Assembly: GCA_043808095.1 (NCBI GenBank)
Contig: JAZDFF010000001.1
Location: 94,230-158,229, forward strand
Direction of reading: 5' to 3'
Origin: Candidatus Omnitrophota bacterium
GTDB lineage: Bacteria; Omnitrophota; Gorgyraeia; JAZDFF01
DNA: 64,000 nucleotides
The notes below the pieces were generated by a model, which searched no databases, was not told the origin of the DNA, and saw only the letters and a list, made by a program, of their open reading frames with translations. How positions within the stretch are numbered: the stretch's first letter is position 1; every line of letters begins with the position of its first letter. Shown here piece by piece: positions 33,799 to 58,893 of this stretch. The translations under genes were made by a program, and so were the position numbers.

Positions 33799-34221
33799 AT
33801 GAGTAACAAACGAATTACTTTAAATGAAGCCATAAAATTTCACGGGCATCTGGGTCCATATCTGGTTCTAGGGCTTTTGGCAGGAAACCTGGCGTTTGAA
33901 AAAATAGGCTTTAAGAAATATTTCGGCATTAGAATAAAAGTCTGGGGCGCAAGCAAGAAACCAAAATCCTGCCTTATTGACGGTCTGCAGCTTTCAAGTG
34001 GTGCCACTTACGGCAAAGGCAATATCGAGAAACTAAATAGCTCAAAAATAAAGATTGATTTTATTAATGAAGAGAATAACAAAAAGATTTCCTTTGTATT
34101 CAAAAAACCAATAATCAAATTATTGCAAAAAGTTAAGACACATGCGGAATCTGAAATTTTAGCGAAGGAACTATATAAAACCAATCTTTCTGAAATATTT
34201 AATATAGCATCAATAAACTAA
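33799..34221 (+). CDS. FmdE-like domain protein
   Basis: FHGHLGPYLVLGLLAG resembles the FmdE HGHxCPG core (Cys replaced by Gly); 140 aa. Confidence 0.45.
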   Translation: MSNKRITLNEAIKFHGHLGPYLVLGLLAGNLAFEKIGFKKYFGIRIKVWGASKKPKSCLIDGLQLSSGATYGKGNIEKLNSSKIKIDFINEENNKKISFVFKKPIIKLLQKVKTHAESEILAKELYKTNLSEIFNIASIN

Positions 34222-34223
34222 AA

Positions 34224-35555
34224 ATGGCCCTTTCAGGTCTAGATATCTATAAGGTTTTACCCAAAACAAACTGCAGGGACTGCGGATTTCCGACGTGTCT
34301 TGCCTTTGCCATGCAGCTTGCCAAGAAGGCAGTGAGCCTGGATAAGTGTCCGCATTTAACCGCAGAGGCAAAAGGAAAACTTGAACAAGCAGCGTTACCG
34401 CCAATTCGCTTAGCCAAAATTGGGAAAGATGACCGCGTCCTTGAAATAGGGAACGAATCCGTAATGTTCCGTCATGAGGAAAAATTCCATCATCCCTGCG
34501 GCATAGGATTTATCTTAGAGGATAGTTTATCCGACGCAGAGCTTGATAAGAACATGAATTCCATAAAATCCTTAAGGTTTGAGCGTATAGGCCAGGAGCT
34601 TAAACCGGATCTTGTTGCCATTTCCCAGACCAAATCCGATAAAGAAAGATTCTTAAAAATTCTAAGGGCGGTTCTGGAAAAACTGGATTTAAATCCAGTA
34701 TTAATGAGTAGCGATGAACAGACGTTAAAAGAAGCCTTAGAGCTAAGCAAAGATAAAAAACCATTGATTTATGCAGCGACCAATTCCAATTATAAGATGA
34801 TGACAGGCTTTTCTAAGAATTACGGCTTGCCGCTTGTAGTTAAGTCAGATAATCTTGATGATTTGTCGCAATTAGTCAAGTCCATAAATGATTTGGGCGT
34901 GGAAGATTTAATCCTTGATCCGGGAACAAAGGGCCTGGGTCAGCGGATTTCCGATCTAACTCAGATTCGGCGCCTAGCATTAAAGAAAAGTTTTAGACAA
35001 CTAGGATATCCGACTATTGCGGTCATATCGGAAAGAGACCCCTATAAAGAAGTAATTCAGGTAAGTAGTCTTTTGGCTAAATATGCCAGTATTATTTTAA
35101 TGAAGGGACTAGAACCCTGGCAGGCTTTAAGTATCTTTACGCTAAGACAAAATATTTATTCTGACCCGCAAAAGCCTCTACAAGTTGAACCCAAGGTTTA
35201 TCCCATTGGAAAAGTTAGCGATATTTCGCCGCTTTTAGTGACCACTAATTTCTCCCTGAGTTACTACACGGTGCTTTCAGAGGTTGAGGCAAGCAAGGTT
35301 CCTTCCTATATTATGAGCGTAGATACCGAAGGCATGTCGGTGTTGACCGCCTGGGCAGCAGAGAAATTTACGGCCGATAAGGTTACAGAGGCAATCAATA
35401 AAAATAATCTTGGTTCTTTGGTTTCGCATAAGAAGGTAATCATCCCGGGCTATGTGGCAGTAATGAGTGGGGATCTTGAGGATAAAAGCGGTTGGCAGAT
35501 AGTTGTTGGTCCGCGCGAGGCCTCCGGGATTCCGAGTTTCTTGAAGAAATTATAG
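34224..35555 (+). CDS. acsC: Corrinoid iron-sulfur protein large subunit AcsC
   Basis: N-terminal 4Fe-4S motif CRDCGFPTC...C, TIM-barrel and C-terminal corrinoid-binding region, 443 aa; adjacent to acsD and acsE. Confidence 0.8.
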   Translation: MALSGLDIYKVLPKTNCRDCGFPTCLAFAMQLAKKAVSLDKCPHLTAEAKGKLEQAALPPIRLAKIGKDDRVLEIGNESVMFRHEEKFHHPCGIGFILEDSLSDAELDKNMNSIKSLRFERIGQELKPDLVAISQTKSDKERFLKILRAVLEKLDLNPVLMSSDEQTLKEALELSKDKKPLIYAATNSNYKMMTGFSKNYGLPLVVKSDNLDDLSQLVKSINDLGVEDLILDPGTKGLGQRISDLTQIRRLALKKSFRQLGYPTIAVISERDPYKEVIQVSSLLAKYASIILMKGLEPWQALSIFTLRQNIYSDPQKPLQVEPKVYPIGKVSDISPLLVTTNFSLSYYTVLSEVEASKVPSYIMSVDTEGMSVLTAWAAEKFTADKVTEAINKNNLGSLVSHKKVIIPGYVAVMSGDLEDKSGWQIVVGPREASGIPSFLKKL

Positions 35556-35659
35556 ACCGCTAAAACGCAAAAATTCCGCTAAAGCGCAAAATTTAATTGA
35601 ATAATTTCTTTGCGATTTTGCGCCTGCATGCCGTCAGTTAGGGGTTTTGCGCCTTTGCG

Positions 35660-37621
35660 GTGTTAAATTGTTTAAAAGTTAGAAAAGTGATGGAAAAGTA
35701 TAAGATAACATTTTATCCGGATAATAAGACCATCGAGGTTGAGAAAGGTAAAACCATACTTTCTGCAGCGATCTCTGCCGGGGTTTACATTAACTCAGGT
35801 TGCGGCGGAGACGGTGTCTGCGGAAGGTGTAAAATCATTGTTAAGAAGGGCGAAGTAAGTTCTCAACCGACTGGCAGGCTTAGCCTGGATGAGAGAAGGC
35901 GGCAAGTCTATCTTTCCTGTTTGACTACCGTCCAGAGTGATTTAGAGGTCGAGGTTTTACCCGAATCAAGACTGGATTTTGATAAATTATCCAGCGAAGA
36001 ACTGGATTTAAGATTAAAAGGCCTTTATTCTGCCTCAGAGGCAGTTGAACAAATAAGCACACTTAAAGAACGGGATTTATTTATTCACTCGCCTTTAGCC
36101 ACCAAATTATATTTGGAAATACCCAAACCGACGTTAGACGATAAAATCAGCGATTTGGAAAGAATCTATCGCTCGATTCGCAAGATTCAGGATATCCCCA
36201 TTATGCAGACTGGTCTTTCTAATATCAGGTGCCTGGGTGAATTATTGCGCGCATCTGATTGGAAGGTCACCGTAACCCTGGGAAAAAGAAACGGGACCAC
36301 TGAGATAGTCTTGATTGAGCCACAAGATACCTCGAAAAAGAATTTCGGGGCGTGTTTTGATATCGGCACCACAACTATTTCCGGCCAGCTCGTGGATTTA
36401 AATAGCAAGAAGGTGCTTGGAACCCGGGCCACCTATAACAAGCAAGCCAGTTTTGGTAGCGACGTAATCAGCAGGATAATCTTTGCCCAGAAACAAGATG
36501 GTCTTGAAAAATTACATCATGCAGTTATTGACAGTATGAATCAGATGATTCTAGAGATGATTAGAGAGCATGGCCTTGACCTTAATGATGTAAATTGTGC
36601 TTTATGCGCAGGAAATACCACGATGATTCATCTCTTGTTACGTGTTGACCCGACCTACATTAGAAGAGAGCCCTATATACCGACGGCTAATTTTATCCCG
36701 GTGATTAGGGCGGCTGAGGCCGGCATAAAGATTAATCCCAGAGGTTTGCTTGCCTGCGTCCCGGGGGTTTCTAGTTACGTGGGAGGAGATGTTGTTTCCG
36801 GGGTTTTAGCCTGCAGTCTGGATAGAGAAAAAGACCTTTGTATATTAATTGATATCGGTACTAATGGCGAGATCGTTTTAGGAAACCGGGAATGGCTTAT
36901 ATCCTGCTCTGCCTCGGCAGGCCCGGCCTTTGAAGGAAGCGGCATAACTTCAGGCACCAGGGCTACAAAAGGGGCAATCCAGAAAGTTAAGATAGATTCT
37001 GCTCAAGGCAATGTAAACTTTACGACTATAACTGGTGCTCTGCCTATCGGAATTTGCGGTTCAGGTTATATTGATTTATTGGCAGAATTTTTAAAAGCCG
37101 GCCTTATTGATAGACAAGGCAAATTCATAACCTCTTCTAAATTTAAGGCTATCCGCGACGGCGAATTTGGCAAGGAATTTGTTTTAGTGCCTAAGAATGA
37201 AAGTAATTTAAAGTCTGATATTGTGATTACTGAAGCGGATATTGAAAATTTAAAAAGGGCAAAGGCGGCAATATTTTCCGCTACGAGTAGTTTAGCTAAA
37301 CACATGGGGATCGAGCTTTCTAAGATAAATAAGTTTTTTATTGCCGGCGGGTTCGGCACTTATTTAGATATTGATAATGCGGTAAGAATCGGGCTCCTGC
37401 CGGATCTGCCGCGTGAAAAATTTAGCTTTGTGGGAAATAGCTCGTTGTTCGGCGCAAGAGAAATCCTTTTTTCTTCCCAGGCTTTTAGTAAGGCAAAAGA
37501 GATTGCCGGGAAAATGACCTATTATGAATTATCCGTTGAGCCGGATTATATGGAAGAATATATGGCGGCTTTATTTTTCCCGCATACGAATTTGAGTAAG
37601 TTTCCGAGCGTGAAGGCATAA
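35660..37621 (+). CDS. Reductive activator of CFeSP (RACo-like; 2Fe-2S ferredoxin plus ASKHA ATPase)
   Basis: N-terminal plant-type ferredoxin motif CGGDGVCGRCK; C-terminal ASKHA domain; true start may be internal MEKYKITF at 35690. Confidence 0.75.
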   Translation: MLNCLKVRKVMEKYKITFYPDNKTIEVEKGKTILSAAISAGVYINSGCGGDGVCGRCKIIVKKGEVSSQPTGRLSLDERRRQVYLSCLTTVQSDLEVEVLPESRLDFDKLSSEELDLRLKGLYSASEAVEQISTLKERDLFIHSPLATKLYLEIPKPTLDDKISDLERIYRSIRKIQDIPIMQTGLSNIRCLGELLRASDWKVTVTLGKRNGTTEIVLIEPQDTSKKNFGACFDIGTTTISGQLVDLNSKKVLGTRATYNKQASFGSDVISRIIFAQKQDGLEKLHHAVIDSMNQMILEMIREHGLDLNDVNCALCAGNTTMIHLLLRVDPTYIRREPYIPTANFIPVIRAAEAGIKINPRGLLACVPGVSSYVGGDVVSGVLACSLDREKDLCILIDIGTNGEIVLGNREWLISCSASAGPAFEGSGITSGTRATKGAIQKVKIDSAQGNVNFTTITGALPIGICGSGYIDLLAEFLKAGLIDRQGKFITSSKFKAIRDGEFGKEFVLVPKNESNLKSDIVITEADIENLKRAKAAIFSATSSLAKHMGIELSKINKFFIAGGFGTYLDIDNAVRIGLLPDLPREKFSFVGNSSLFGAREILFSSQAFSKAKEIAGKMTYYELSVEPDYMEEYMAALFFPHTNLSKFPSVKA

Positions 37622-37627
37622 TTAACA

Positions 37628-38389
37628 ATGGGATATATATTTGCAGTCTGCGGCAAAGGCGGCACGGGAAAAACCACCATTACTGCTTTACTTATAAATT
37701 GGCTAAAGGCCAATAGAGAGTGTTCGGTCTTGGCGGTTGATGCTGACCCTAACAGCAATTTGTCAAATTCGCTGGGCGTGGCTAAAAACAAGAGCCTTGC
37801 GGATATTGTGGATAGTATTACCAAAGACCCTAAAGTTGTGCCTAGTAACATGAGTAAGGACCATTATATCGAATATCAGGTTCAGTTGGGGTTATCCGAA
37901 AGTAATGGTTTTGATCTTTTGAGCATGGGGCATCCTGAGGGCCCGGGCTGTTATTGCTATGTTAATAATGTCTTACGAAACATTATGCAAAAATTAATCA
38001 AAAATTACGATTTTGTAGTGATTGACAATGAGGCAGGCATGGAACACCTGTCGCGGCGCACTATGAGGGCTGCGGATTGCCTGCTTTTAGTCAGCGACCA
38101 TTCTGTCGTGGGCTTGCGTTCAGCCAAGAGGATTTTAGACCTGGCCCGAGACATGGGCATAAAGTTTAAGGCCGCAAAACTTATTGTCAATCGCGCTGAT
38201 AAAGACTGCCGTCACTTGGAAGATAAGATAAAAGAGTCGGGATTAGATTGCTTAGGTTGTCTTTCCGAAGATAAAACTTTAGGGAAACTAAGCGTTGAAG
38301 ATAAGCCCGTATCTAAATTGGGTAAGGATGCATTAATATTAGGGCAATTCGATAAAATAGTTAAAAATTTATTCGGTTTGAAAGATTAA
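37628..38389 (+). CDS. cooC: CooC/AcsF-type nickel-insertion ATPase (MinD/ParA fold)
   Basis: Deviant Walker A CGKGGTGKTT and Cys-x-Cys motif GCYCY. Confidence 0.8.
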   Translation: MGYIFAVCGKGGTGKTTITALLINWLKANRECSVLAVDADPNSNLSNSLGVAKNKSLADIVDSITKDPKVVPSNMSKDHYIEYQVQLGLSESNGFDLLSMGHPEGPGCYCYVNNVLRNIMQKLIKNYDFVVIDNEAGMEHLSRRTMRAADCLLLVSDHSVVGLRSAKRILDLARDMGIKFKAAKLIVNRADKDCRHLEDKIKESGLDCLGCLSEDKTLGKLSVEDKPVSKLGKDALILGQFDKIVKNLFGLKD

Positions 38390-38393
38390 AAAA

Positions 38394-39368
38394 ATGGCTA
38401 TAGAATTATATAAAGAAAAGTGGGTCAATAATGTTAATGAGGTGATTTTAGGCGCCACAAAAGAAGAGGGCGGAAGTCGCGCATTTTCTTTGAAGGTGGG
38501 CGGCGAGTCCTGTCTGCCTTATTTATTTGAAGAGGGTTCTATGCCCAATGCGCCCGTGGTTGCCCAGGAGATTTGGGATATCGAGCCTACTGATTGGCCG
38601 GAGATCTTGAGAGAGCCGTTTAAAGATGTCCTGGCAAATCCCCTGGAGTGGGCCGAGAAGGCAGTTAAGGCTTATGGCGCGAATTTATTGTGTCTAAAAT
38701 TACAGGGTGCGCATCCTGATTCAGGAAACCGGCCTAACGATGAATTAGTCAAGATCTTAAAAGATATCTTAAAGACAGTCAATGTGCCTTTGATCGTTTC
38801 AGGATGCGGTGATGACGCCAAAGATAACCTCCTCATGCCTCTTTTAAGCGAGGCGACTAAAGGAGAACGCATCCTTTTTGGCGACGCTGTCCAGGATAAC
38901 TATAAGACGATTACGGCAAGCGTCTTAGCTGACGGACATAATATTATTGCCGAGTCGCCCATTGATATTAATATTGCTAAGCAACTTAATATCCTGATTA
39001 CTGACATGGGGTTGCCTGGGGATAAGATTGTGATTAATCCTACGGTGGGCGCTTTAGGTTATGGCCTTGAGTATGCTTATTCCATAATGGAGAGGGCCAG
39101 GCTTGCGGCATTGGCCGGTGATAAGATGATGAGTATGCCTTTTATATGTTTCATCGGCCAGGAGGCTACCAAGGCCAAAGAGGCTAAGGCCACTATAGAG
39201 GAACATCCCCAATGGGGCAAGGAATTAGAGCGGGGGATTGTTTGGGAGGCGGTTACTGCCTGTGCATTTTTACAGTCCGGAGCAGACATCCTGGTTATGC
39301 GTCATCCCCAGGCGATAAAACTGATTAAAGAGACGATAGAAGAGTTAATGTCTAAGAGTAACCAGTAA
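38394..39368 (+). CDS. acsD: Corrinoid iron-sulfur protein small subunit AcsD
   Basis: 324 aa TIM-barrel-like protein between cooC and acsE; size and context match CFeSP small subunit. Confidence 0.65.
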   Translation: MAIELYKEKWVNNVNEVILGATKEEGGSRAFSLKVGGESCLPYLFEEGSMPNAPVVAQEIWDIEPTDWPEILREPFKDVLANPLEWAEKAVKAYGANLLCLKLQGAHPDSGNRPNDELVKILKDILKTVNVPLIVSGCGDDAKDNLLMPLLSEATKGERILFGDAVQDNYKTITASVLADGHNIIAESPIDINIAKQLNILITDMGLPGDKIVINPTVGALGYGLEYAYSIMERARLAALAGDKMMSMPFICFIGQEATKAKEAKATIEEHPQWGKELERGIVWEAVTACAFLQSGADILVMRHPQAIKLIKETIEELMSKSNQ

Positions 39369-39446
39369 CCAGAGTACAGAAGCCAGGGCTAAGTATTTTT
39401 CTGGTTTCTGTTTACAGGTTTCTGATCTCTACCGAGCGAAGCGAGG
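39369..39446. repeat. Repeat module ending in CCGAGCGAAGCGAGG just before the acsE ATG
   Basis: ACCAGAGTACAGAAGCCAG and CCGAGCGAAGCGAGG shared with 11955-12103. Confidence 0.8.
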
Positions 39447-39451
39447 ATAAA

Positions 39452-40240
39452 ATGATTATAGTCGGCGAACTCATAAATGGGATGTACAAAGAGGTAAGAG
39501 AGGCACTTGCCAAAAAGGATAAAAAGGTTATCCAGGATTTGGCTAAAAGACAGATTGAGGCAGGCGCCTCGATTTTAGATGTTAACTGCGGCCCGGCATC
39601 GCGCGATCCGATAGCCGATATGAAATGGTTAGTCGAGACCATTCAAGAGACAAACAATGTCTCGCTTTCCTTGGATAGCACCAAACCTGATGTGATTGAG
39701 GCAGGGCTAAAACTGGTTAAAAATAAGCCAATGATTAATTCAACCAGCGCAGACCCAGACAGATTAGAGGTATTGGTAGGGCTGGCCATAAAATATAAGG
39801 CCTTTTTAATTGGCCTCGCTTTAGATAAAAGGGGCGTGCCGCAAGATAAGGACAGGCGCCTGGAATTAGCTGCGCAAATTATCGGTTTTTGCCAGGAGAA
39901 AGGCTTTCCTACCGAGGATTTATATCTAGATCCGGTGGTTTTACCGGTCAATGTGGCCCAGACACAGCAGGTTTCTATGCTTGAGGCCTTACGGGAATTT
40001 AAGTTATTGTCTGACCCTGCCCCTAAAACCATTATTGGCTTAAGCAATGTTTCTCAAGGAGCAAAAGACCGCAGTATTATCAATCGTATATTTCTGGTGA
40101 TGTCTTTATCAAATGGCTTAGACGCAGCTATACTAGATCCCCTGGACAAAGCACTTATGGACTCTTTTATAACTGCCGAACTTATTTTAAACAAACAGAT
40201 TTATTGCGATTCTTATCTGGATGCCTATAAAAAGAGATGA
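39452..40240 (+). CDS. acsE: Methyltetrahydrofolate:corrinoid/iron-sulfur protein methyltransferase AcsE
   Basis: Pterin-binding domain, MIIVGELINGMYKEV...LDVNCGP, 262 aa. Confidence 0.8.
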   Translation: MIIVGELINGMYKEVREALAKKDKKVIQDLAKRQIEAGASILDVNCGPASRDPIADMKWLVETIQETNNVSLSLDSTKPDVIEAGLKLVKNKPMINSTSADPDRLEVLVGLAIKYKAFLIGLALDKRGVPQDKDRRLELAAQIIGFCQEKGFPTEDLYLDPVVLPVNVAQTQQVSMLEALREFKLLSDPAPKTIIGLSNVSQGAKDRSIINRIFLVMSLSNGLDAAILDPLDKALMDSFITAELILNKQIYCDSYLDAYKKR

Positions 40241-45936: not shown

Positions 45937-47199
45937 GTGTTGACAGAGGATTATATGAATGTAAGGATGGTTTCTGCCGGAGATTTAGAAGAGGTAAAAA
46001 GACAGATGCGCGCCATTGGAGTCGATAAATACGGCATTCAGATTATGGCGCCTAAGTCGTGCATGCACCTTGTAAAGATAGAAGGCCTCTCTAATATTGC
46101 CGCAAATGTATTAAAACAGGAGATGCTCTCTCTTGGCGGAGATGTGGCGGTTTCTCGGGGGTCCTTAACCGGGGCAACCAAGAAAACAGATTGCCTGGTA
46201 ATCGGAAACGATATCCAGGTTAACCGCCTTAACGAAAAACTACGCATGCAGCCTTTTAAATTAGGAGAATTAGCCTGCCAGATTAAGGATGTATTGCATA
46301 ATTACGGCCGCGATAAATTCGTTGTTAAGACACGAAGGTTCACTTTAGATTTAAAGAAGCGGCCTATGATTATGGGTATTGTCAATTTGACTGATGATTC
46401 CTTTAGTGGTGACGGACTATTAAATAAAATCAAAAATCAAAAATCAAAAATCAAAATTGTTAATGAAGCAATAAGATTTACAGAAAAGATGGTTGAAGAT
46501 GGAGCAGATATCATCGATATTGGAGGAGAGTCAACTCGTCCGGGAGCCCGGCCAGTTCCTTTAAAAGAAGAATTAGCCAGGATTATTCCGGTTATAAAAC
46601 TTTTGGTTAAGCGTATCAAGGTGCCTATATCCGTCGATACTTACAAACCCGAAGTAGCAAAGCAGGCCTTGGATGCAGGCGCGAGTATTGTAAATGATAT
46701 TATGGGTACGGATTTAGACAATCGTATTGCTAAATTAGTAGCCAGCTTTGACGCGGCGCTCATTATTATGCATATCAAGGGCAGGCCACGGACTATGCAG
46801 AATAACCCGAAATATAAATCCTTAATGGCCGAGATAATTTTTGGCCTTAAAGGTTCAATTGATAAAGCCCTTAAGCTGGGAGTGAACTCGTCTAATATTA
46901 TTATTGACCCGGGCATAGGTTTCGGAAAGACCTCAGGGCATAATCTTTTTATCCTAAAACATTTATCGGAATTAAAGAGCCTGGGTTATCCTATATTGGT
47001 CGGCCCGAGCAGAAAGTCATTTATCGGCAAGGTCTTGGGCGGTGTGCCTGCACACAATAGATTAATGGGTACAGCTGCAGCCTGCGCCTTGGCAGTAGCC
47101 AATGGGGCAAATATCCTGCGCGTCCATGATGTCAAAGAGGTCAAACAGGTTATAAAATTAACGCAAGCCATAAGAGGGGCAAAAAATGCAGCTGATTAA
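45937..47199 (+). CDS. folP: Dihydropteroate synthase with N-terminal extension domain
   Basis: Pterin-binding DHPS core (IMGIVNLTDDSFSGDG, GADIIDIGGESTRPG, DPGIGFGK); roughly 140-aa N-terminal extra domain. Confidence 0.85.
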   Translation: MLTEDYMNVRMVSAGDLEEVKRQMRAIGVDKYGIQIMAPKSCMHLVKIEGLSNIAANVLKQEMLSLGGDVAVSRGSLTGATKKTDCLVIGNDIQVNRLNEKLRMQPFKLGELACQIKDVLHNYGRDKFVVKTRRFTLDLKKRPMIMGIVNLTDDSFSGDGLLNKIKNQKSKIKIVNEAIRFTEKMVEDGADIIDIGGESTRPGARPVPLKEELARIIPVIKLLVKRIKVPISVDTYKPEVAKQALDAGASIVNDIMGTDLDNRIAKLVASFDAALIIMHIKGRPRTMQNNPKYKSLMAEIIFGLKGSIDKALKLGVNSSNIIIDPGIGFGKTSGHNLFILKHLSELKSLGYPILVGPSRKSFIGKVLGGVPAHNRLMGTAAACALAVANGANILRVHDVKEVKQVIKLTQAIRGAKNAAD

Positions 47200-51559: not shown

Positions 51560-51890
51560 AATAGTTTACACGGGTTTCCGCCACCCGTCATCTTTGATGG
51601 CGAGTGGCGAGATCTCGCCGAAGCTAAAAAAATGGAGTCCACGGCTTTACCCTCTTCGACTCGCGTCGAGCGAGGCGAGCAGCCGTGGTACCTGAAAAAC
51701 CCGCCTACGCTTCGCTTCGGCGAGGTCCGCTCGCCTCGCGGCGAAGCCGCGGGCCTTCAATACGTAATGGCGACATCTCGCCGTAGCGCTAATTGCACGC
51801 ATTCATCCCCAGGTTCACACCTGGGGTTTTCCCGCCAAAGGCGAGGCTCGCCAAAGGCGGCTGCGCGAAGGCGGATAAATATCTAGCTTC
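51560..51890 (+). repeat. GC-rich island with four GGCGAG-N(2-5)-CTCGCC hairpin palindromes
   Basis: Palindromes at 51607-51620 (GGCGAGATCTCGCC), 51719-51735, 51779-51792, 51840-51852; composition clearly more GC-rich than the surroundings; ORFs here are Arg-rich low-complexity and judged spurious. Confidence 0.55.
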
Positions 51891-51891
51891 G

Positions 51892-51920
51892 GCGGGCAAT
51901 TCCCGTTGCCCGCTTTTTTT
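51892..51920 (+). terminator. Intrinsic terminator candidate
   Basis: GCGGGCAA / TTGCCCGC 8-bp stem followed by a run of 7 T. Confidence 0.6.
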
Positions 51921-51927
51921 GTTTAAT

Positions 51928-52911
51928 ATGAATAAGATGTTACGACTTATCATTATTGCCGTTTTTGCTTTTTTAATCTTTAAGAGTTCAACCTTTGGTT
52001 GGAGGCTTTTTGTCAAAGCCAAACCAAAAACAAATGATGCAGATATTTTTTTAAGCCAGAGGTTAAAGCATCATGTCTTATCGCTTTCCGACTACATAGG
52101 AGAGCGCCACGTATTCACAAAATACGAGAATTTAGATAAAGCAGCTAACTACATTACTAGGACTTTCCAGGATCATGGTTATTCGGTCTCGGCTCACACC
52201 TATAAAGCCTATAGTAAAATCTCCCAAAATATAATTGCTACAAAGCTCACCGAAGACAATCCAAAGGAAATTATAGTTATCGGCGCGCATTATGATTCAG
52301 TGCTGGGTTCACCGGGTGCTGATGATAATGCCAGCGGTGTCGCCGTACTATTAGAGACGGCTAAATTCCTAAAAGATAGCGAGACTAAACAAACAATCAA
52401 ATTTATTGCTTTTGTTAATGAGGAACCGCCATTTTTCAAGAGTAAAGATATGGGAAGCTTTGCCTATTTGGAAGAATGTTTAAAAAATAAAGAAAGAATT
52501 AGTAGCGCCATTATCTTGGAGTCGGTTGGTTTTTATTCCCAAAGGCGTTATTCCCAGAGATACCCTCCTTTATTTGGAATATTCTATCCGGATCGGGCAA
52601 ACTTTATTGCCTTGGTGAGTAATTTTAAATCCCGGCATCTTTTAAAAGCCCTAAAGCAATCATTTTCCAAAAATTCAACTCTGAATTTAGAGACCATCTC
52701 AACTTTTGATTTTGTCCCGGGAGTAGATTTCTCTGATAATTGGAGTTTTTGGCAAAAGGGCATTCCGGCAATTATGATTACTGACACTGCCTTTTACCGT
52801 AACCCTTATTATCATACTGCCCAAGATACTGCCGAGAAATTAGATTATGATTTTATGACTCTACTCGCCAAAGATTTAAGTATTTCTATTTTGGAGTTAG
52901 CCAATAAGTGA
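51928..52911 (+). CDS. M28 family zinc aminopeptidase
   Basis: Signal anchor; VIGAHYDSV...ADDNASG...VNEEP metal-ligand pattern; start moved to ATG 51928 (ORF-track start lies inside the GC-rich island). Confidence 0.75.
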   Translation: MNKMLRLIIIAVFAFLIFKSSTFGWRLFVKAKPKTNDADIFLSQRLKHHVLSLSDYIGERHVFTKYENLDKAANYITRTFQDHGYSVSAHTYKAYSKISQNIIATKLTEDNPKEIIVIGAHYDSVLGSPGADDNASGVAVLLETAKFLKDSETKQTIKFIAFVNEEPPFFKSKDMGSFAYLEECLKNKERISSAIILESVGFYSQRRYSQRYPPLFGIFYPDRANFIALVSNFKSRHLLKALKQSFSKNSTLNLETISTFDFVPGVDFSDNWSFWQKGIPAIMITDTAFYRNPYYHTAQDTAEKLDYDFMTLLAKDLSISILELANK

Positions 52912-54188
52912 AAAATTTCCCAAAAAATTTCCTCTGGGGCGCAGCGACCTCAAGCCATCAGGTTGAAGGAGATAATTTTTATAATAACTGGTGGCGCTGG
53001 GAGAATTTTGAAAAGACCGTTGAGCGTTCCGGAAAGGCCTGCGACCATTATCGGCTTTTTGAACAAGACTTCGACCTTGCCCGAGAGCTCAACCACAATG
53101 CCCACCGGTTTTCCGTAGAATGGAGCAGGATTTATCCTAAGGCCGATGAGTTTAAAAGTGATGAAGTCGAGCACTATCTTAAGGTCGTCGCTGCTTTAAG
53201 AAAGAGAAACATTGAGCCCGTCGTAACCTTGCATCATTTCACCAATCCTCATTGGCTACTTGATTTCGGCGGCTGGGCTAATCCTAAGGCTGTGCGTTAT
53301 TTTGTTGAATATGTCGAGCATATTGTAAAGGCGCTTGGTGCGGATGTTAAGTATTGGGTTACTATTAACGAGCCGATGATTTATGTTTATTACTCTTTTA
53401 TCATTGGGATCTGGCCGCCGGGCGTAAAGTCGACAAGAGAAGCATTCAAGGTATTAAATAATCTTATTCTCGCCCATTCAAATGCATATAAAGTTATCCA
53501 CAGGATTTACGAAGAAAATAAATGGCCGCGTCCTTACGTAAGTATCGCCCAGAATATCCTGGCATTTACTCCCTGCAGAAACTTTTTTTTGGACAAAGAG
53601 GCAGCCTATCTGAGGGATCAGGTTTATAATCAGCTTCTGTTAAAAGTATTTACCACAGGACAAATGAAAATCCCGGGATTAATTTACGACCGGCTGTCTT
53701 TTGCCAAAGAGACACTTGATTTTATCGGACTAAATTACTATAGCCGCCATTTCGTCAGATTTGACCTTTTTAAACCTGGTGAATTATTCGGCAGGCAATG
53801 CTCACTGGATCATCACAAGGCAGGTCGTCTGAACGAGATGAATTCTGAGGTCTATCCCGAAGGCCTGTTGAAAGTTCTTCTAAGTTTAAAAAAATACAAC
53901 CTGCCTATAATTATTACGGAAAACGGCACTGCCGAGACTGATGATAATTTCCGCTGGCAGTTTATCAAAGGCCATCTAAAATATTTATCCCGGGCTATAA
54001 ACGCAGGCGTTGATGTAAGAGGTTATTTATATTGGTCATTATTGGATAATTTCGAATGGCACCATGGATTCAAGCCGCGTTTTGGTCTGACTGAGGTAGA
54101 TTATGCCACTCAAGAGAGAAAAATCAGGGAGAGCGCCAGAAAATTTGCCCAGGTATGTAAGAGTAATTCTATTGAAGAATTAACCTAA
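52908..54188 (+). CDS. Glycoside hydrolase family 1 beta-glucosidase
   Basis: FLWGAATSSHQVEG N-terminal signature, TINEP acid/base, IITENG nucleophile. Confidence 0.85.
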   Translation: MKNFPKNFLWGAATSSHQVEGDNFYNNWWRWENFEKTVERSGKACDHYRLFEQDFDLARELNHNAHRFSVEWSRIYPKADEFKSDEVEHYLKVVAALRKRNIEPVVTLHHFTNPHWLLDFGGWANPKAVRYFVEYVEHIVKALGADVKYWVTINEPMIYVYYSFIIGIWPPGVKSTREAFKVLNNLILAHSNAYKVIHRIYEENKWPRPYVSIAQNILAFTPCRNFFLDKEAAYLRDQVYNQLLLKVFTTGQMKIPGLIYDRLSFAKETLDFIGLNYYSRHFVRFDLFKPGELFGRQCSLDHHKAGRLNEMNSEVYPEGLLKVLLSLKKYNLPIIITENGTAETDDNFRWQFIKGHLKYLSRAINAGVDVRGYLYWSLLDNFEWHHGFKPRFGLTEVDYATQERKIRESARKFAQVCKSNSIEELT

Positions 54189-54209
54189 ATTATATACAAT
54201 ATAGAAAGG

Positions 54210-54983
54210 TTGAATAAAATGAGGACAAAAGAAACTTTTGAGAACGAATTAAAGCCGGTGCATATTGAGGCCTTTGACCTTGATGATGCCTGGTTTCAAT
54301 GCTTGAGCCAAATTCTTGAGAAGGGCCATGTCTATATAATCACTAAAGGCAGCTACGAGGGCCAAAGGCGTCTGGAATTCGATTTTGTGACTGTAAGGGT
54401 AAAAAACCCGGCGCATCAGATTATCCCTATAATCCCTGAGGGGATGAGTATCCCGGCCCCTACCGACATGGAATATATCCAGGGTTATCTTTCCTATCTT
54501 TTGACCGGCCAGAAAACCGACACTGAAGATTATACCTATGGCGAGAGGCTTGTCGAGCCGAAGGTAAGGATTTCCAGTGCGGATTCCGCAGATAAACTAT
54601 ATCATGAGATGCCTCTTGGCGTAAATCAGATTCAGGAGGTCATTAATATGTATAAGACTAAAGGCCATGGCACTAACCAGGCAACCATGGAGATAGGCAT
54701 GCCCTCAGATATAAAATTAGTTGATCCTCCGTGCCTGCGCATCATTGATACGCGTATCCGCTATGGAAAACTGCATTTCATTTTGTATTTTCGCTCCTGG
54801 GATCTTTGGGGCGGTTTTCCTTCCAATCTTGGTGGCTTAGAGCTTGTTAAACAATTCATGGCCGAGGAAATCGGTGTAGGGGATGGCGAGATCATTGCCG
54901 TGAGTAAAGGCCTGCATCTCTATGAATATGCCTGGGAGCTGGCCAAGATGCGCACTATGAGGGCCGATAAGGTTATAAAATAA
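54210..54983 (+). CDS. Thymidylate synthase-like protein (ThyA fold, divergent/methanogen-type)
   Basis: DPPCLRIID (candidate catalytic Cys), FRSWDLWGGFPSNLGGL, SKGLHLYEY resemble ThyA core motifs. Confidence 0.55.
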   Translation: MNKMRTKETFENELKPVHIEAFDLDDAWFQCLSQILEKGHVYIITKGSYEGQRRLEFDFVTVRVKNPAHQIIPIIPEGMSIPAPTDMEYIQGYLSYLLTGQKTDTEDYTYGERLVEPKVRISSADSADKLYHEMPLGVNQIQEVINMYKTKGHGTNQATMEIGMPSDIKLVDPPCLRIIDTRIRYGKLHFILYFRSWDLWGGFPSNLGGLELVKQFMAEEIGVGDGEIIAVSKGLHLYEYAWELAKMRTMRADKVIK

Positions 54984-55171: not shown

Positions 55172-57187
55172 ATGAACTTCATGGATCTTTTTGACAAGAG
55201 GCTAATTATAAAACAAATCCCCCTGTTTTCTGCTTTAAAGCCCCGCGAGATAAACTTTATCCTGGATAGATCAGAATTTGTCGAATACAAAAAGTCCGAG
55301 ATTATTTATAAAGAAGGCGACCCCCCGGATGCATTTTACTGCGTAGTAATCGGCAGGGTCCAGCTTTTTACCAGGGACTCTTTGCAAGGAGAGACAATCT
55401 TAGAATATCTGCATCGCGGAAAATATTTCGGCATAATTTCTCTTTTGACCGATGAACCTCATTCCGTAACCGTACGTGCGCTTAATGATACGATATTGCT
55501 TCGTATAAAAAAAGATGATTTTGATTTTATCTTACATAATATTCCCCAGCTTGCCATTGATTTAAGCAGGATGCTTTCACGCCGGCTCAAGCGTAAAGAC
55601 ATCCACCAGAAGACCATCTTTGAGAGTACGATTGTTTCTATATTCAGTTCCCATGGCCAGGCCGAAAAAAACGCCTACAGCATAAACCTGGCCTTAAGCC
55701 TCAAAGAACAGACGCATAAATCCGTAATTTTCCTGGAGTTGTGTCCTCAGGACAAAACCCATAGCTGTCCGGCTAAGTTTGGGGCTTGTTCGGGGCATAA
55801 GACCTTAGACATATCCAAATTGTTTACAGACCTGGAGAAATTGAAAGAACTGATATTGAAAAATACCCTTGACGTGGATTTAATCTGCCTGCATTATCGG
55901 GAAGATCAGCCCGATAATTTAAAAAGGCTTCTGGATTTATTGAGCCTCTTGGTCAATGATTACCACTACATATTTTTAGACCTGCCGACAGCGATGGATG
56001 AATTTATTTTGAATATCCTAAGGCAGTCAGATTCGGTGCATATCTTGAGCGGGTCCGATGAAATAGAGTTAAAAAAGACACGCAGTCTTGTGGAAAGGCT
56101 GAAAACCGACTTTGGTATGCATATGAATAATATAAAAGTGATTATTAATGAATATAAACACTCCAAATTAACGCATGAGGAACAGTTAGAAATCCTGGAA
56201 AATAATATCTTTGCTACTTTGCCCAAGATAGAATTTGAAAGCGCCGACGATAAATTGGTTTTGACTAACAAGGAAAGCGAATACGCCAAGGCCGTAAGAA
56301 GGATTAGCCGCCACGAAGGGGATTGTTTAGTCGGCCTTGCTTTGGGCGTGGGCGTTGCTTATGGCTTTTGCCACATTGGGGTATTAAAGGTAATCGAAGA
56401 GGAAAACATCCCTGTTGATATTATCTCAGGCTCAAGCGTCGGGGCCCTTATTGCTGCCTTATGGGCAGTAGGTAAAAGTTCCTCCGAGATACTAAAGATT
56501 ACCGAAGATTTTAAAGAGCCGAAATTTTTCTGGAGACTGCTGGATTGGACTGTGCCTTTACAGGGTTTTATCAAAGGCAATAAACTTTACGCCTTGTTAA
56601 AAAAATATTTAGGCAATAAAACCTTTCAGGATGTGCGTATTCCCTTAAAGATTGTGGCTTCTGACGTAAAGATGAAAGAGCCGATTGTTTTTGAAAAGGG
56701 CAGCCTCATTGATGCGGTGATGGCCTCTTGTACCATGCCCGGGGTATTTAATCCTTTTAAATTAAGAGAAGGCATACTCTTTGACGGCGGGGTAATCAAT
56801 CCTTTGCCTACCGAGCCGCTTATTAATATGGGCGCAAAAAAGATTATTGCTATTAATGTTACCCCTTCCCGGGAAGATATCGTAAGGCAATACGCCAAGA
56901 TTAAGGAAGGCCAGAAAAAGGTAATAGCTAAACACTCCATTTTTAATATAAAGGCATTTTTCAAGGATTTGTTTAGGACCAATATCCTGGATTATATATT
57001 TAGCAGTATTGAGATACTTCAATCTGAATTGGCGCAGAAAGAGGCACAGTTTGCGGATATTGTTTTACATCCTGATACCTCAGGGATGTACTGGCTGGAA
57101 TTAGGCAGGGCCGAGGAATTTGCGCAAAGAGGGGAAGAAGAGGCGCGGCGCAACTTAGAACGGATAAAACAACTCCTGTATGAGTAG
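55172..57187 (+). CDS. Three-domain protein: cNMP-binding domain, degenerate ParA/receiver-like middle domain, patatin-like phospholipase
   Basis: N-terminal CAP-family cNMP-binding fold (FGIISLLTDEPHSVTVRAL); C-terminal patatin motifs GLALGVGVAYG, GSSVG, DGG. Confidence 0.8.
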   Translation: MNFMDLFDKRLIIKQIPLFSALKPREINFILDRSEFVEYKKSEIIYKEGDPPDAFYCVVIGRVQLFTRDSLQGETILEYLHRGKYFGIISLLTDEPHSVTVRALNDTILLRIKKDDFDFILHNIPQLAIDLSRMLSRRLKRKDIHQKTIFESTIVSIFSSHGQAEKNAYSINLALSLKEQTHKSVIFLELCPQDKTHSCPAKFGACSGHKTLDISKLFTDLEKLKELILKNTLDVDLICLHYREDQPDNLKRLLDLLSLLVNDYHYIFLDLPTAMDEFILNILRQSDSVHILSGSDEIELKKTRSLVERLKTDFGMHMNNIKVIINEYKHSKLTHEEQLEILENNIFATLPKIEFESADDKLVLTNKESEYAKAVRRISRHEGDCLVGLALGVGVAYGFCHIGVLKVIEEENIPVDIISGSSVGALIAALWAVGKSSSEILKITEDFKEPKFFWRLLDWTVPLQGFIKGNKLYALLKKYLGNKTFQDVRIPLKIVASDVKMKEPIVFEKGSLIDAVMASCTMPGVFNPFKLREGILFDGGVINPLPTEPLINMGAKKIIAINVTPSREDIVRQYAKIKEGQKKVIAKHSIFNIKAFFKDLFRTNILDYIFSSIEILQSELAQKEAQFADIVLHPDTSGMYWLELGRAEEFAQRGEEEARRNLERIKQLLYE

Positions 57188-57383
57188 TGCTAAGTAGAGA
57201 GCAGAAAGTAGTCCTTCGATAATTTCTCAGGACAAACAATGCCAAAATCCCTGCACTGCTTCCCGTTAAACAATTGATGCGTTTTAGGAGAAAATCTCCT
57301 TAATTAGGTAGTTCGGACATAAATTTTATACCATTTCTATTGCATTTATTTAACAAATATGTTAACTAAAACGCATTCTGGCC

Positions 57384-57413
57384 TTGACAAAGCAGGCTGA
57401 AGTATGTTATAGT
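57384..57413 (+). promoter_or_regulatory. Sigma-70-like promoter candidate upstream of abiEi
   Basis: TTGACA, 18-bp spacer, TATAGT. Confidence 0.4.
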
Positions 57414-57455
57414 TGTTTCTGTAAATAATCATTTTTGATTATATGAGGAAACATA

Positions 57456-58100
57456 ATGAACTATAACGATTTTCGTAAAAAATTCCAATCTCTGCCTATC
57501 TTTACCAGCAAAGACGTAGTTAGGCTGCAGCCGGACAAACAAGCTGTGCGCAATCAGATTAATCGCTGGCAGGCAAAGGGGCTGCTTATTCAATTAAAGC
57601 GGGGGTTATATGCGTTTGATGAAATCGACCGCAAGGTCGACTTAAACCTTCATTTTATTGCTAATAATCTTTATGCGCCTTCATATATCAGCTTAGAGTC
57701 GGCATTAAATTTTTATGGTTTAATCCCGGAGAAGGCAGTTGATTTAACCTCTGTAACTACTAAAAAAACCGCCATTTTTAAGAATAAATTAGGAGTTTTT
57801 ATCTATCAGCACATTAAGCCAAATGCCCTTAGAGGATTTAGGCAGGTTAAAGATAATTCTGGTTATACCTTTTTTATTGCTGAGCCTGAAAAAGCGATTG
57901 TGGATTTTTTTTATTTGAACTTAAGCAGATTTAAGCCCAAAGACAGGGACATTTTTGAAGTCTCATACCGTTTTCAGAACATTGAAGGACTGAAAGTTTT
58001 AAAGATCTTAGAGTATGCCAATTTGTTTAACAACCTTAAACTTTTGAAGGTCTGCCAGAATTTCTGCAGATTCATCAAGAAAGAGGCAAAAAATGATTGA
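57456..58100 (+). CDS. abiEi: AbiEi-like antitoxin/transcriptional regulator
   Basis: N-terminal wHTH with QINRWQAKGLLIQLKRGLYAF; overlaps the following nucleotidyltransferase gene by 8 nt. Confidence 0.7.
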   Translation: MNYNDFRKKFQSLPIFTSKDVVRLQPDKQAVRNQINRWQAKGLLIQLKRGLYAFDEIDRKVDLNLHFIANNLYAPSYISLESALNFYGLIPEKAVDLTSVTTKKTAIFKNKLGVFIYQHIKPNALRGFRQVKDNSGYTFFIAEPEKAIVDFFYLNLSRFKPKDRDIFEVSYRFQNIEGLKVLKILEYANLFNNLKLLKVCQNFCRFIKKEAKND

Positions 58101-58893
58101 GGTCATCAAGCAACAATTTGTAGAAAATATGTCGACCGGAGAAAAGATTAACAGGGTGCGAGAGTTCTTGCAGACCTTGGTTTTAAAGATTATTTACGAC
58201 AAGGATTATTTCAATAATCTTGCCTTTGTTGGAGGCACGGCCTTAAGGTTTTTATACAGCCTAAGGCGTTTCTCCGAAGACCTTGATTTTTCTCTGGTAA
58301 ATAAGGAAGGTTATAATTTCAGGAAAATTAATGCGGAGGTTATTGAAGGATTTGGTTCTTTTGGCTTTGAAATAGAAAGCAGACCCAAAGATGAAAAGAA
58401 TGTTCACAGCGCAATGCTGAGATTTAAGGGATTGTTAAAGGCGCTTGGGCTTTCTGATATGGATGAGCAGAAACTTTCTGTTAAACTTGAGATAGATACC
58501 AATCCGCCAAAGGGTTGGAATGTTCAAACTAGCGTTGTTAATAAGACCTATCTTTTGAATATCGTCCATTTTGATTTATCTTCTTCGTTTGCCACAAAAT
58601 TACATGCCTGTTTTTACCGCAAATTTGTGAAGGGCCGCGATTTTTATGACCTCATCTGGTATCTTGGCAAGAAAATCGTCCCCAATTTTGTATTATTAAA
58701 CAATGCGATCGCGCAAACCCAGGGGAAAAATCCCGGTATAGATGTAGATAATTTTAAGGAGTTTATTTTAGAAAACCTGAAGAAGATCGATTTTGATAAG
58801 GCAAAAGCAGATGTTGAAAGGTTCTTAGAGGATAAAAACGAACTTAAGCTTTTTGATTTTGCGGTAATTAGGGGCGCAATTGAATTACTCTAG
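58093..58893 (+). CDS. abiEii: AbiEii/AbiGii-family nucleotidyltransferase toxin
   Basis: GGTALRFLYSLRRFSEDLDFS NTase motif (GG...DxD); 266 aa. Confidence 0.75.
   Translation: MIEVIKQQFVENMSTGEKINRVREFLQTLVLKIIYDKDYFNNLAFVGGTALRFLYSLRRFSEDLDFSLVNKEGYNFRKINAEVIEGFGSFGFEIESRPKDEKNVHSAMLRFKGLLKALGLSDMDEQKLSVKLEIDTNPPKGWNVQTSVVNKTYLLNIVHFDLSSSFATKLHACFYRKFVKGRDFYDLIWYLGKKIVPNFVLLNNAIAQTQGKNPGIDVDNFKEFILENLKKIDFDKAKADVERFLEDKNELKLFDFAVIRGAIELL

Follow-up and report, generated by a model that had tools for sequence, protein, structure and literature searches.

The DNA analysed here, called the window, is a stretch of 64,000 nucleotides from a Candidatus Omnitrophota bacterium (assembly GCA_043808095.1, contig JAZDFF010000001.1, positions 94,230 to 158,229), and hosts on its forward strand a gene encoding a compact protein of the thymidylate synthase (ThyA) family. 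The open reading frame (ORF) found at 54210..54983 (+) is the one in which a first-pass annotation had described a divergent ThyA-like protein, and it carries all three motifs quoted there. In its longest form the ORF opens with a TTG at 54210, three codons 5' of an ATG at 54219. The ATG is probably the true start, since it is preceded by a Shine-Dalgarno-like GAAAGG hexamer and the resulting product of 254 aa matches exactly (100% identity) a GenBank protein of the same length, from a Candidatus Omnitrophota metagenome-assembled genome (MAG), already named "thymidylate synthase". Residues are numbered throughout on the 254-aa form. The protein belongs to a compact, previously undescribed and mostly bacterial clade of ThyA proteins lying outside the methanogen equivalog, and the gene most likely encodes the housekeeping folate-dependent thymidylate synthase of this organism, converting deoxyuridylate (dUMP) into thymidylate (dTMP), a building block of DNA, a reading drawn from sequence comparisons to which we assign a probability of about 0.75.

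Fold and family

The Omnitrophota protein is a genuine, full-length ThyA-fold protein. It passes the gathering score of PF00303 (40.3 versus 24.3 bits), with a profile match limited to aa 135-252. Alignments to canonical thymidylate synthases obtained by searching PDB sequences are similarly restricted to the C-terminal half, and the N-terminal half, searched alone, retrieved no solved chain of similar sequence from the PDB. The AlphaFold2 model built from 26 homologues has a mean predicted local distance difference test score (pLDDT) of 93.7 and a predicted template modelling score (pTM) of 0.90, and fits the thymidylate synthase fold across about 200-250 residues. The nearest solved structure is PDB 9iqc, a flavin-dependent synthase of 5-hydroxy-deoxycytidylate (5-hydroxy-dCMP). 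The signature of the superfamily, Cys172 within DPPC followed by FRSWD at 191-195, is present, and both parts are invariant in the clade. The initial assignment to the ThyA fold is borne out: the ORF is real, the best matches are to the thymidylate synthase fold and not to an unrelated one, the similarity is significant by PF00303, and the cysteine of DPPC, singled out as the candidate catalytic residue, corresponds by alignment to the catalytic cysteine of the family.

Among the NCBIfam models the best match is TIGR03283, which describes the methanogen-type enzyme. The alignment runs end to end (E = 3.8e-29), but the score of 101.7 bits falls short of the cutoff of 174.55. Models of canonical ThyA (TIGR03284, NF002495-9) give only 37-38 bits against cutoffs of 108-405, missing them as well. 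Ten other members of the clade, including proteins of ~215 aa, score 65-110 bits on TIGR03283, all below the cutoff. The proteins taken as reference for TIGR03283 are ORF59 of the Methanobacterium virus PhiF1 (187 bits) and seven relatives (186-245 bits); the homology search started from ORF59 gave 9 proteins, and a cellular methanogen origin of these references is not established.

An exhaustive search of 1.84 billion representative sequences retrieved 1,198 relatives of the Omnitrophota protein at E <= 1e-3, of which 163 reach E <= 1e-30. In neighbour-joining trees based on 217 columns, with two bootstrap sets of 100 and 60 replicates, the Omnitrophota-type clade is monophyletic in 86/100 and 57/60 replicates. 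The TIGR03283 members form a group excluding the Omnitrophota protein in 98/100 and 57/60 replicates, and the two clades are sisters in 85/100 and 43/60. Both canonical ThyA and a group including the enzyme of phage SPO1 and its homologues from Maribacter and Leptospira fall outside the two sister clades. Grouping of the Omnitrophota-type clade with the SPO1-like proteins is seen in 0/100 and 1/60 replicates, and grouping with RB69 gp48 in none. Since the trees are distance-based and sampling is modest, the sister relationship with TIGR03283 is to be regarded as moderately supported. The first-pass suggestion of an archaeal, methanogen-type synthase is therefore correct as to the nearest curated family, but the protein stays below the cutoff of that family and falls in a sister clade of its own, made up mostly of bacterial proteins. 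The clade lies outside all curated equivalog models, and the name "thymidylate synthase" given to its members in the databases consequently conveys superfamily-level homology only.

Proteins of the two sister clades have much in common. TIGR03283 members (e.g. PhiF1 ORF59 and the other references, P0282-P0289) share with the Omnitrophota protein a compact ThyA fold of about 200-250 aa lacking both the W80/W83 loop and the C-terminal tail, a YTYG(D/E)R motif, a polar or acidic residue at the position of E. coli L143, a Leu following the catalytic Cys, and the equivalents of R166, S167, D169, N177, H207 and Y209. They differ in sequence (about 29% identity), in having WRSHD in place of FRSWD, in lacking the Pro-rich loop (aa 65-83) and the GSYEGQRR insertion of the Omnitrophota protein, and in retaining R21, R126 and R127 without arginines equivalent to Arg51 and Arg174. 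Canonical ThyA (EC 2.1.1.45; E. coli; TIGR03284/NF002497) is far more distant. Identity is 16-21%, only the C-terminal half can be aligned by sequence, and the Omnitrophota protein is about 35 residues shorter at the C-terminus.

The active site

Features of the gene are listed in Table 1. Three alignments, an hhalign alignment to E. coli ThyA (probability 97.7%) and a pair made independently by MAFFT, all agree on the C-terminal half. Residue frequencies were derived from 106 clade representatives, and compared with 8 TIGR03283 proteins.

Table 1. Features of the ThyA-like gene, in window coordinates
Feature	Position	Strand	Description
Predicted Shine-Dalgarno-like GAAAGG	54204..54209	+	9 nt upstream of ATG 54219; read from the sequence
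CDS of the compact ThyA-family protein	54219..54983	+	254 aa plus stop; from the ORF list, GenBank identity and Pfam/NCBIfam/fold matches
Arg51 codon	54369..54371	+	Clade-specific Arg in the short inserted loop GSYEGQRR; Thr or Val in TIGR03283 members
YTYGER motif, aa 105-110	54531..54548	+	Tyr107 equivalent to E. coli Tyr94 (hhalign); invariant in the alignments
22-aa insertion, aa 112-133	54552..54617	+	Modelled as a beta-hairpin, at lower confidence; not in ~215-aa relatives
T152-N153-Q154	54672..54680	+	In place of S-R126-R127, holding the phosphate-binding pair of canonical and methanogen-type enzymes (hhalign and MAFFT)
DPPCLR active-site strand	54723..54740	+	Asp169 (L143), Cys172 (catalytic C146), Leu173 (H147), clade-specific Arg174
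FRSWDLWGGFPSN	54789..54827	+	Arg192/Ser193/Asp195 equivalent to R166/S167/D169; Gly199 to G173; Asn203 to N177 (uracil selector); Phe191/Trp194 replace Q165/C168
His233-Leu-Tyr235	54915..54923	+	H207/Y209 equivalents, contacts to the deoxyribose 3'-OH; 19 residues follow

Invariant or nearly so among the representatives are Cys172 (C146 in E. coli), Tyr107 (Y94), Arg192 (R166), Ser193 (S167), Asp195 (D169), Gly199 (G173), Asn203 (N177), His233 (H207) and Tyr235 (Y209). The canonical set of dUMP contacts (Y107, R192, S193, D195, N203, H233 and Y235) is complete. The Asp by which enzymes of the T4 gp42 and MilA type select cytosine does not occur at the N177 position, filled here by Asn203 and by Asn in 101/106 representatives. 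The residue code proposed on experimental grounds in a 2026 paper makes these positions informative: Asn or Asp at position 177 selects dUMP or dCMP, respectively, a bulky residue at position 143 correlates with methyl products and an acidic one with hydroxymethyl products in enzymes of canonical length, and the D169N change marks flavin-dependent 5-hydroxy-dCMP synthases (PMC13326640). According to this code, conservation of the N177 equivalent points to uracil, and that of the D169 equivalent places the protein outside the flavin hydroxylase class. The rule concerning L143 seems not transferable to compact enzymes, since the position is occupied by Asp (five), Glu (two) or His (one) in all 8 TIGR03283 proteins. 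Asp169 of the Omnitrophota protein, at first sight a hint of hydroxymethylase activity, was discarded as such because genuine TIGR03283 proteins carry an equivalent residue.

Several other positions have changed. Relative to E. coli, R126/R127 are replaced by Asn153/Gln154, H147 by Leu173, Q165 by Phe191, C168 by Trp194, F176 by Ser and L143 by Asp169. Within the clade position 153 is Asn in 103/106 members and position 154 is Gln in 92/106, whereas the pair is Arg-Arg in 8/8 TIGR03283 members. Two arginines, Arg51 (101/106) and Arg174 (96/106), are in turn specific to the clade. In TIGR03283, SPO1-type and canonical enzymes R21 and R126 are retained and neither position 51 nor position 174 is Arg, while the R21 position is variable in the Omnitrophota-type clade. 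Such co-ordinated substitutions suggest that the phosphate-binding arginines have probably been relocated, with Arg51 and Arg174 taking the place of R126' and R127'.

Losses are found around the folate site as well. The W80/W83 segment is deleted, the stretch leading from the helix at aa 84-96 to Y107 being about 20 residues shorter and devoid of Trp. Only 19 residues are found after Tyr235, compared to the 55 following Y209 in E. coli, hence the protein lacks the C-terminal tail with which canonical enzymes close over the folate. The position expected for E58 has no conserved Glu.

Distribution and genomic context

Relatives of the Omnitrophota protein are encoded in at least 598 GTDB species genomes. 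The best 80 of these, with identities of 74-83%, belong almost exclusively to Omnitrophota. The clade has been found in Omnitrophota, in Chloroflexota/Dehalococcoidia, in Ca. Aquicultor and in some archaea. Most of the named members in the deeper branches are bacteria (Chloroflexota/Dehalococcoidia, Ca. Aquicultor, Ca. Alcyoniella and a MAG labelled 'Proteobacteria'), and at least one archaeal MAG hosts a clade member amid ribosomal protein genes.

Over 79 loci, each examined for about ±10 kb, the gene is embedded in a conserved housekeeping block, with tilS-ftsH-folP-cdaA-pdxJ-acpS-nnrD upstream and PilZ-gpsA-PilZ-hom-thrC downstream. Across the block, the ThyA-like protein has the highest median identity (78.4%), followed by FtsH (71.6), AcpS (69.5), PdxJ (59.6), NnrD (58.1), FolP (53.0) and CdaA (50.2). 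Neighbourhoods in Aquicultor, Chloroflexota and one archaeon revealed no functional linkage to the ThyA-like gene. A PilZ-domain gene lies directly 3' of the ThyA-like gene in 39/77 Omnitrophota loci (L002-L081), and the same adjacency recurs, across phyla and without obvious explanation, in Ca. Aquicultor (Actinomycetota; L088:2564-3247). In the genome analysed here the Omnitrophota synteny is interrupted on both flanks of the gene (window 51793..54188 and 55172..58893). On the upstream side it is broken by the insertion of an M28 peptidase and a GH1 glycosidase; on the downstream side, a cyclic nucleotide-binding/patatin protein and an AbiEi/AbiEii toxin-antitoxin pair (GC 0.36-0.37) occur in place of PilZ-gpsA. 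Farther away, the segment 1..9600 of the window resembles, as we assume from N-terminal sequences only, a dcw cluster (ftsW, murG, murC, murB, ddl, ftsQ, ftsA).

Horizontal acquisition from archaea had been envisaged for the gene. The notion that a methanogen thymidylate synthase gene moved recently into this bacterium accords with TIGR03283 being the best curated model, and with the occurrence of members of the wider clade in a few archaeal MAGs. A recent transfer is nevertheless very improbable: the gene is Omnitrophota-wide, is the most conserved of a syntenic block, and its product falls outside TIGR03283, in a clade whose named members are mostly bacterial. Composition is also not clearly anomalous. 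The GC content (0.458) is close to that of the native ftsH (0.451), and GC at third codon positions (0.51) is at, or slightly above, the upper end of the native range. An ancient transfer between the two domains, in either direction, is possible.

Folate metabolism and other thymidylate genes

The window encodes enzymes both making and using tetrahydrofolate. FolP passes the equivalog model of dihydropteroate synthase (309 versus 162.6 bits), and a methyl-tetrahydrofolate:corrinoid/Fe-S protein methyltransferase passes its own model (298 versus 259 bits). The latter belongs to a methyl-branch module of the acetyl-CoA pathway (window 33799..40240), along with an FmdE-like protein, the gamma (AcsC) and delta (AcsD) subunits of the corrinoid Fe-S protein, RACo and a CooC-like ATPase. 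Among the annotated genes of the window there is no catalytic subunit of carbon monoxide dehydrogenase/acetyl-CoA synthase. Corrinoid modules of this pathway are typical of anaerobes. Since the organism makes and uses tetrahydrofolate, methylene-tetrahydrofolate is the likely donor of the one-carbon (C1) unit. The dihydropteroate synthase gene (window 45937..47199) encodes an N-terminal extension of about 140 aa without Pfam match, and orthologues of similar length, with a resembling N-terminal sequence, have been found in 31 Omnitrophota loci.

Alternative routes to thymidylate were looked for as well. Searches by tblastn for ThyX, FolA and canonical ThyA gave no match in 1.2 Mb of sequence, a small share of each genome, and a literature search on thyX or thymidylate synthase in Omnitrophota returned nothing relevant.

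Functional interpretation

The view that the gene is the housekeeping thymidylate synthase of its host leans on fold and family, on the retained active site, on the phylogeny, on the availability of folate, and on conservation and synteny of the kind expected of an essential gene, i.e. the spread over at least 598 genomes, the top conservation within a housekeeping block, and the presence in some relatives of inteins at the catalytic Cys (see below). By homology with canonical enzymes, Cys172 would attack C6 of dUMP, Asn203 would read the uracil, His233 and Tyr235 would hold the 3'-OH of the deoxyribose, and Arg192 and Ser193 the phosphate. The C1 unit would come from 5,10-methylene-tetrahydrofolate, and the methylene intermediate would be then reduced to dTMP. 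Where canonical dimers use Arg126' and Arg127' across the subunit interface, here replaced by Asn-Gln, the charge probably comes from Arg51 and Arg174 of the same subunit. The cofactor pocket appears remodelled, and the holding of the pterin and the delivery of the hydride are the least certain step of the proposed mechanism, because the W80/W83 loop and the C-terminal tail are absent.

A few observations weigh against this assignment. The protein reaches the cutoff of no curated thymidylate synthase equivalog. Elements of canonical ThyA such as R126/R127, H147, Q165, the W80/W83 loop, the E58 equivalent and the C-terminal tail are changed or missing, folA adjoins the gene in none of the 79 loci, and the best near-full-length matches among phage proteins are dUMP hydroxymethylases of the SPO1 type. 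Moreover, formation of dTMP has been demonstrated neither for a member of the clade nor for an identified, purified enzyme of the methanogen-type sister group (PMC9931769, PMC9012536).

Alternatively, the protein may be a dUMP methylase of ThyA fold with non-classical cofactor chemistry, which would bind folate or another pterin in a different manner, draw reducing power not from the tetrahydropterin ring but from, e.g., a flavin or another hydride donor, and by releasing no dihydrofolate make dihydrofolate reductase dispensable. The elements that position folate in canonical enzymes (the W80/W83 loop, the C-terminal tail, F176 and H147) are indeed missing, a ThyA-fold enzyme able to bind flavin exists and is the nearest solved structure, folA is adjacent in 0/79 loci while canonical thyA-folA pairs were readily found in Listeria and Acinetobacter records, and the cofactor used by the sister archaeal clade is itself unsettled. 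We consider this unlikely, as there is no positive sign of a flavin or any other reductant, the diagnostic D169N change is absent, and Asp195 is conserved, its canonical counterpart D169 being in contact with the pterin. Furthermore, the lack of folA within 10 kb tells little about the rest of the genome, and methanogens are presumed to make dTMP with an equally compact sister enzyme. Slightly less likely still is that the whole clade represents a mechanistically distinct type of synthase, in which the active site would be built by a single subunit by virtue of Arg51 and Arg174, the hydride, with the folate-enclosing loop and tail gone, would be obtained otherwise than in classical ThyA, for instance from a flavin or a different donor, and dihydrofolate would not be formed.

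Other products than dTMP have to be considered. In a cellular dUMP 5-hydroxymethylase, water rather than hydride would quench the exocyclic methylene, yielding 5-hydroxymethyl-dUMP for a modified base or a metabolite. Such activity, envisaged at first as that of a pyrimidine hydroxymethylase or methylase paralog, recalls gp29 of the SPO1 group, which is 28-29% identical to the Omnitrophota protein over aa 25-235, has a uracil-type Asn, scores not much lower on TIGR03283 (83.6 versus 101.7 bits), and carries like it an Asp at the L143 position, acidic residues at which correlate with hydroxymethyl products in canonical-length enzymes; the active site, lacking the C-terminal tail, also looks open. 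However, the L143 position does not discriminate among compact enzymes, and the trees join the clade to TIGR03283 rather than to SPO1-like proteins. The latter (359-383 aa, with long C-terminal extensions), including the homologues of the Maribacter phage Colly_1 and of a Leptospira plasmid, form a separate clade and keep both the E58 helix and R126, which are missing in the Omnitrophota-type clade. SPO1-type enzymes are encoded by phages in contexts of nucleotide modification, the Maribacter phage gene having a glucosyltransferase neighbour, whereas no hypermodification genes (deoxynucleoside monophosphate kinase, dTTPase, glycosyltransferases) lie close to the gene under study, a phylum-wide core gene surrounded by housekeeping genes in the 79 loci. 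Phylogeny, genomic context and the conserved N177 and D169 equivalents thus speak against a hydroxymethylase, which is improbable but less easily set aside than a flavin-dependent hydroxylase. A flavin-dependent pyrimidine C5-hydroxylase akin to RB69 gp48 and PDB 9iqc, enzymes which act on dCMP with flavin and O2 and form a different product, is effectively refuted by the residue code as read from the sequence. Residues D169, N177 and Y209, and N/Q at the positions of R126/R127, are found in the Omnitrophota protein, versus N, D and F, with R126/R127 kept, in gp48. Identity is 22-24%, the two never group in bootstraps, and the reaction needs O2, while the window carries a corrinoid module typical of anaerobes.

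Clade variants and inteins

Derived offshoots occur within the clade. One member (P0255) has both D169N and N177D, a signature matching the one reported for 5-hydroxy-dCMP synthases, and another (P0246), carrying N177D and R174I, is joined in one chain with a thymidine-kinase domain. The two are possibly viral enzymes involved in nucleotide modification. Set against these derived forms, the Omnitrophota protein keeps the ancestral state, i.e. uracil recognition and C1 transfer. The fusion to thymidine kinase was evaluated as Rosetta-stone support for function and discarded, P0246 being a derived N177D, R174I variant.

Several clade members of 550-990 aa (P0129, P0149, P0127, P0169, P0186 and P0235) seem to host inteins, as they give Pfam matches to Hint, intein-splicing or LAGLIDADG domains, only some of which are above the Pfam cutoffs. 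In at least two of them (P0129 and P0149) the end of the intein, '...VHN', directly precedes the catalytic Cys of 'CLR', which implies that the nucleophile of the enzyme doubles as the +1 residue of the intein.

A genuine TIGR03283 protein (P0286) is encoded by a virus-like contig (L086/L087) along with an integrase, RecT and many small ORFs. A kinase-like gene lies immediately upstream, and a dCTP deaminase/dUTPase gene is found nearby. Together with ORF59 of PhiF1, this context shows that methanogen-type thymidylate synthases are carried by archaeal viruses.

Significance

Thymidylate synthase is a textbook example of an essential enzyme and of a drug target, and few enzymes are as well understood as its classical form. 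The clade described here retains the nucleophile and the recognition of the base, and yet has dispensed with parts regarded as important for binding the phosphate and for enclosing the folate while hydride is transferred, under a constraint stronger than that acting on FtsH throughout the phylum. We know of no solved structure, either in the clade or in the methanogen-type sister group. Should the protein prove, as is most likely, to be a plain folate-dependent thymidylate synthase, the finding would be an ordinary one, the function being as annotated and only the form unusual. If the mechanism proved distinct, it would represent a third route to thymidylate, built on the ThyA fold, and would free these bacteria from dihydrofolate reductase. 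Either way the clade deserves structural and enzymological study. Its characterization would reveal the workings of a minimal ThyA, including its C1 carrier and reductant, and would test, outside canonical-length enzymes, the residue rules by which methyl, hydroxymethyl and hydroxy products are predicted.

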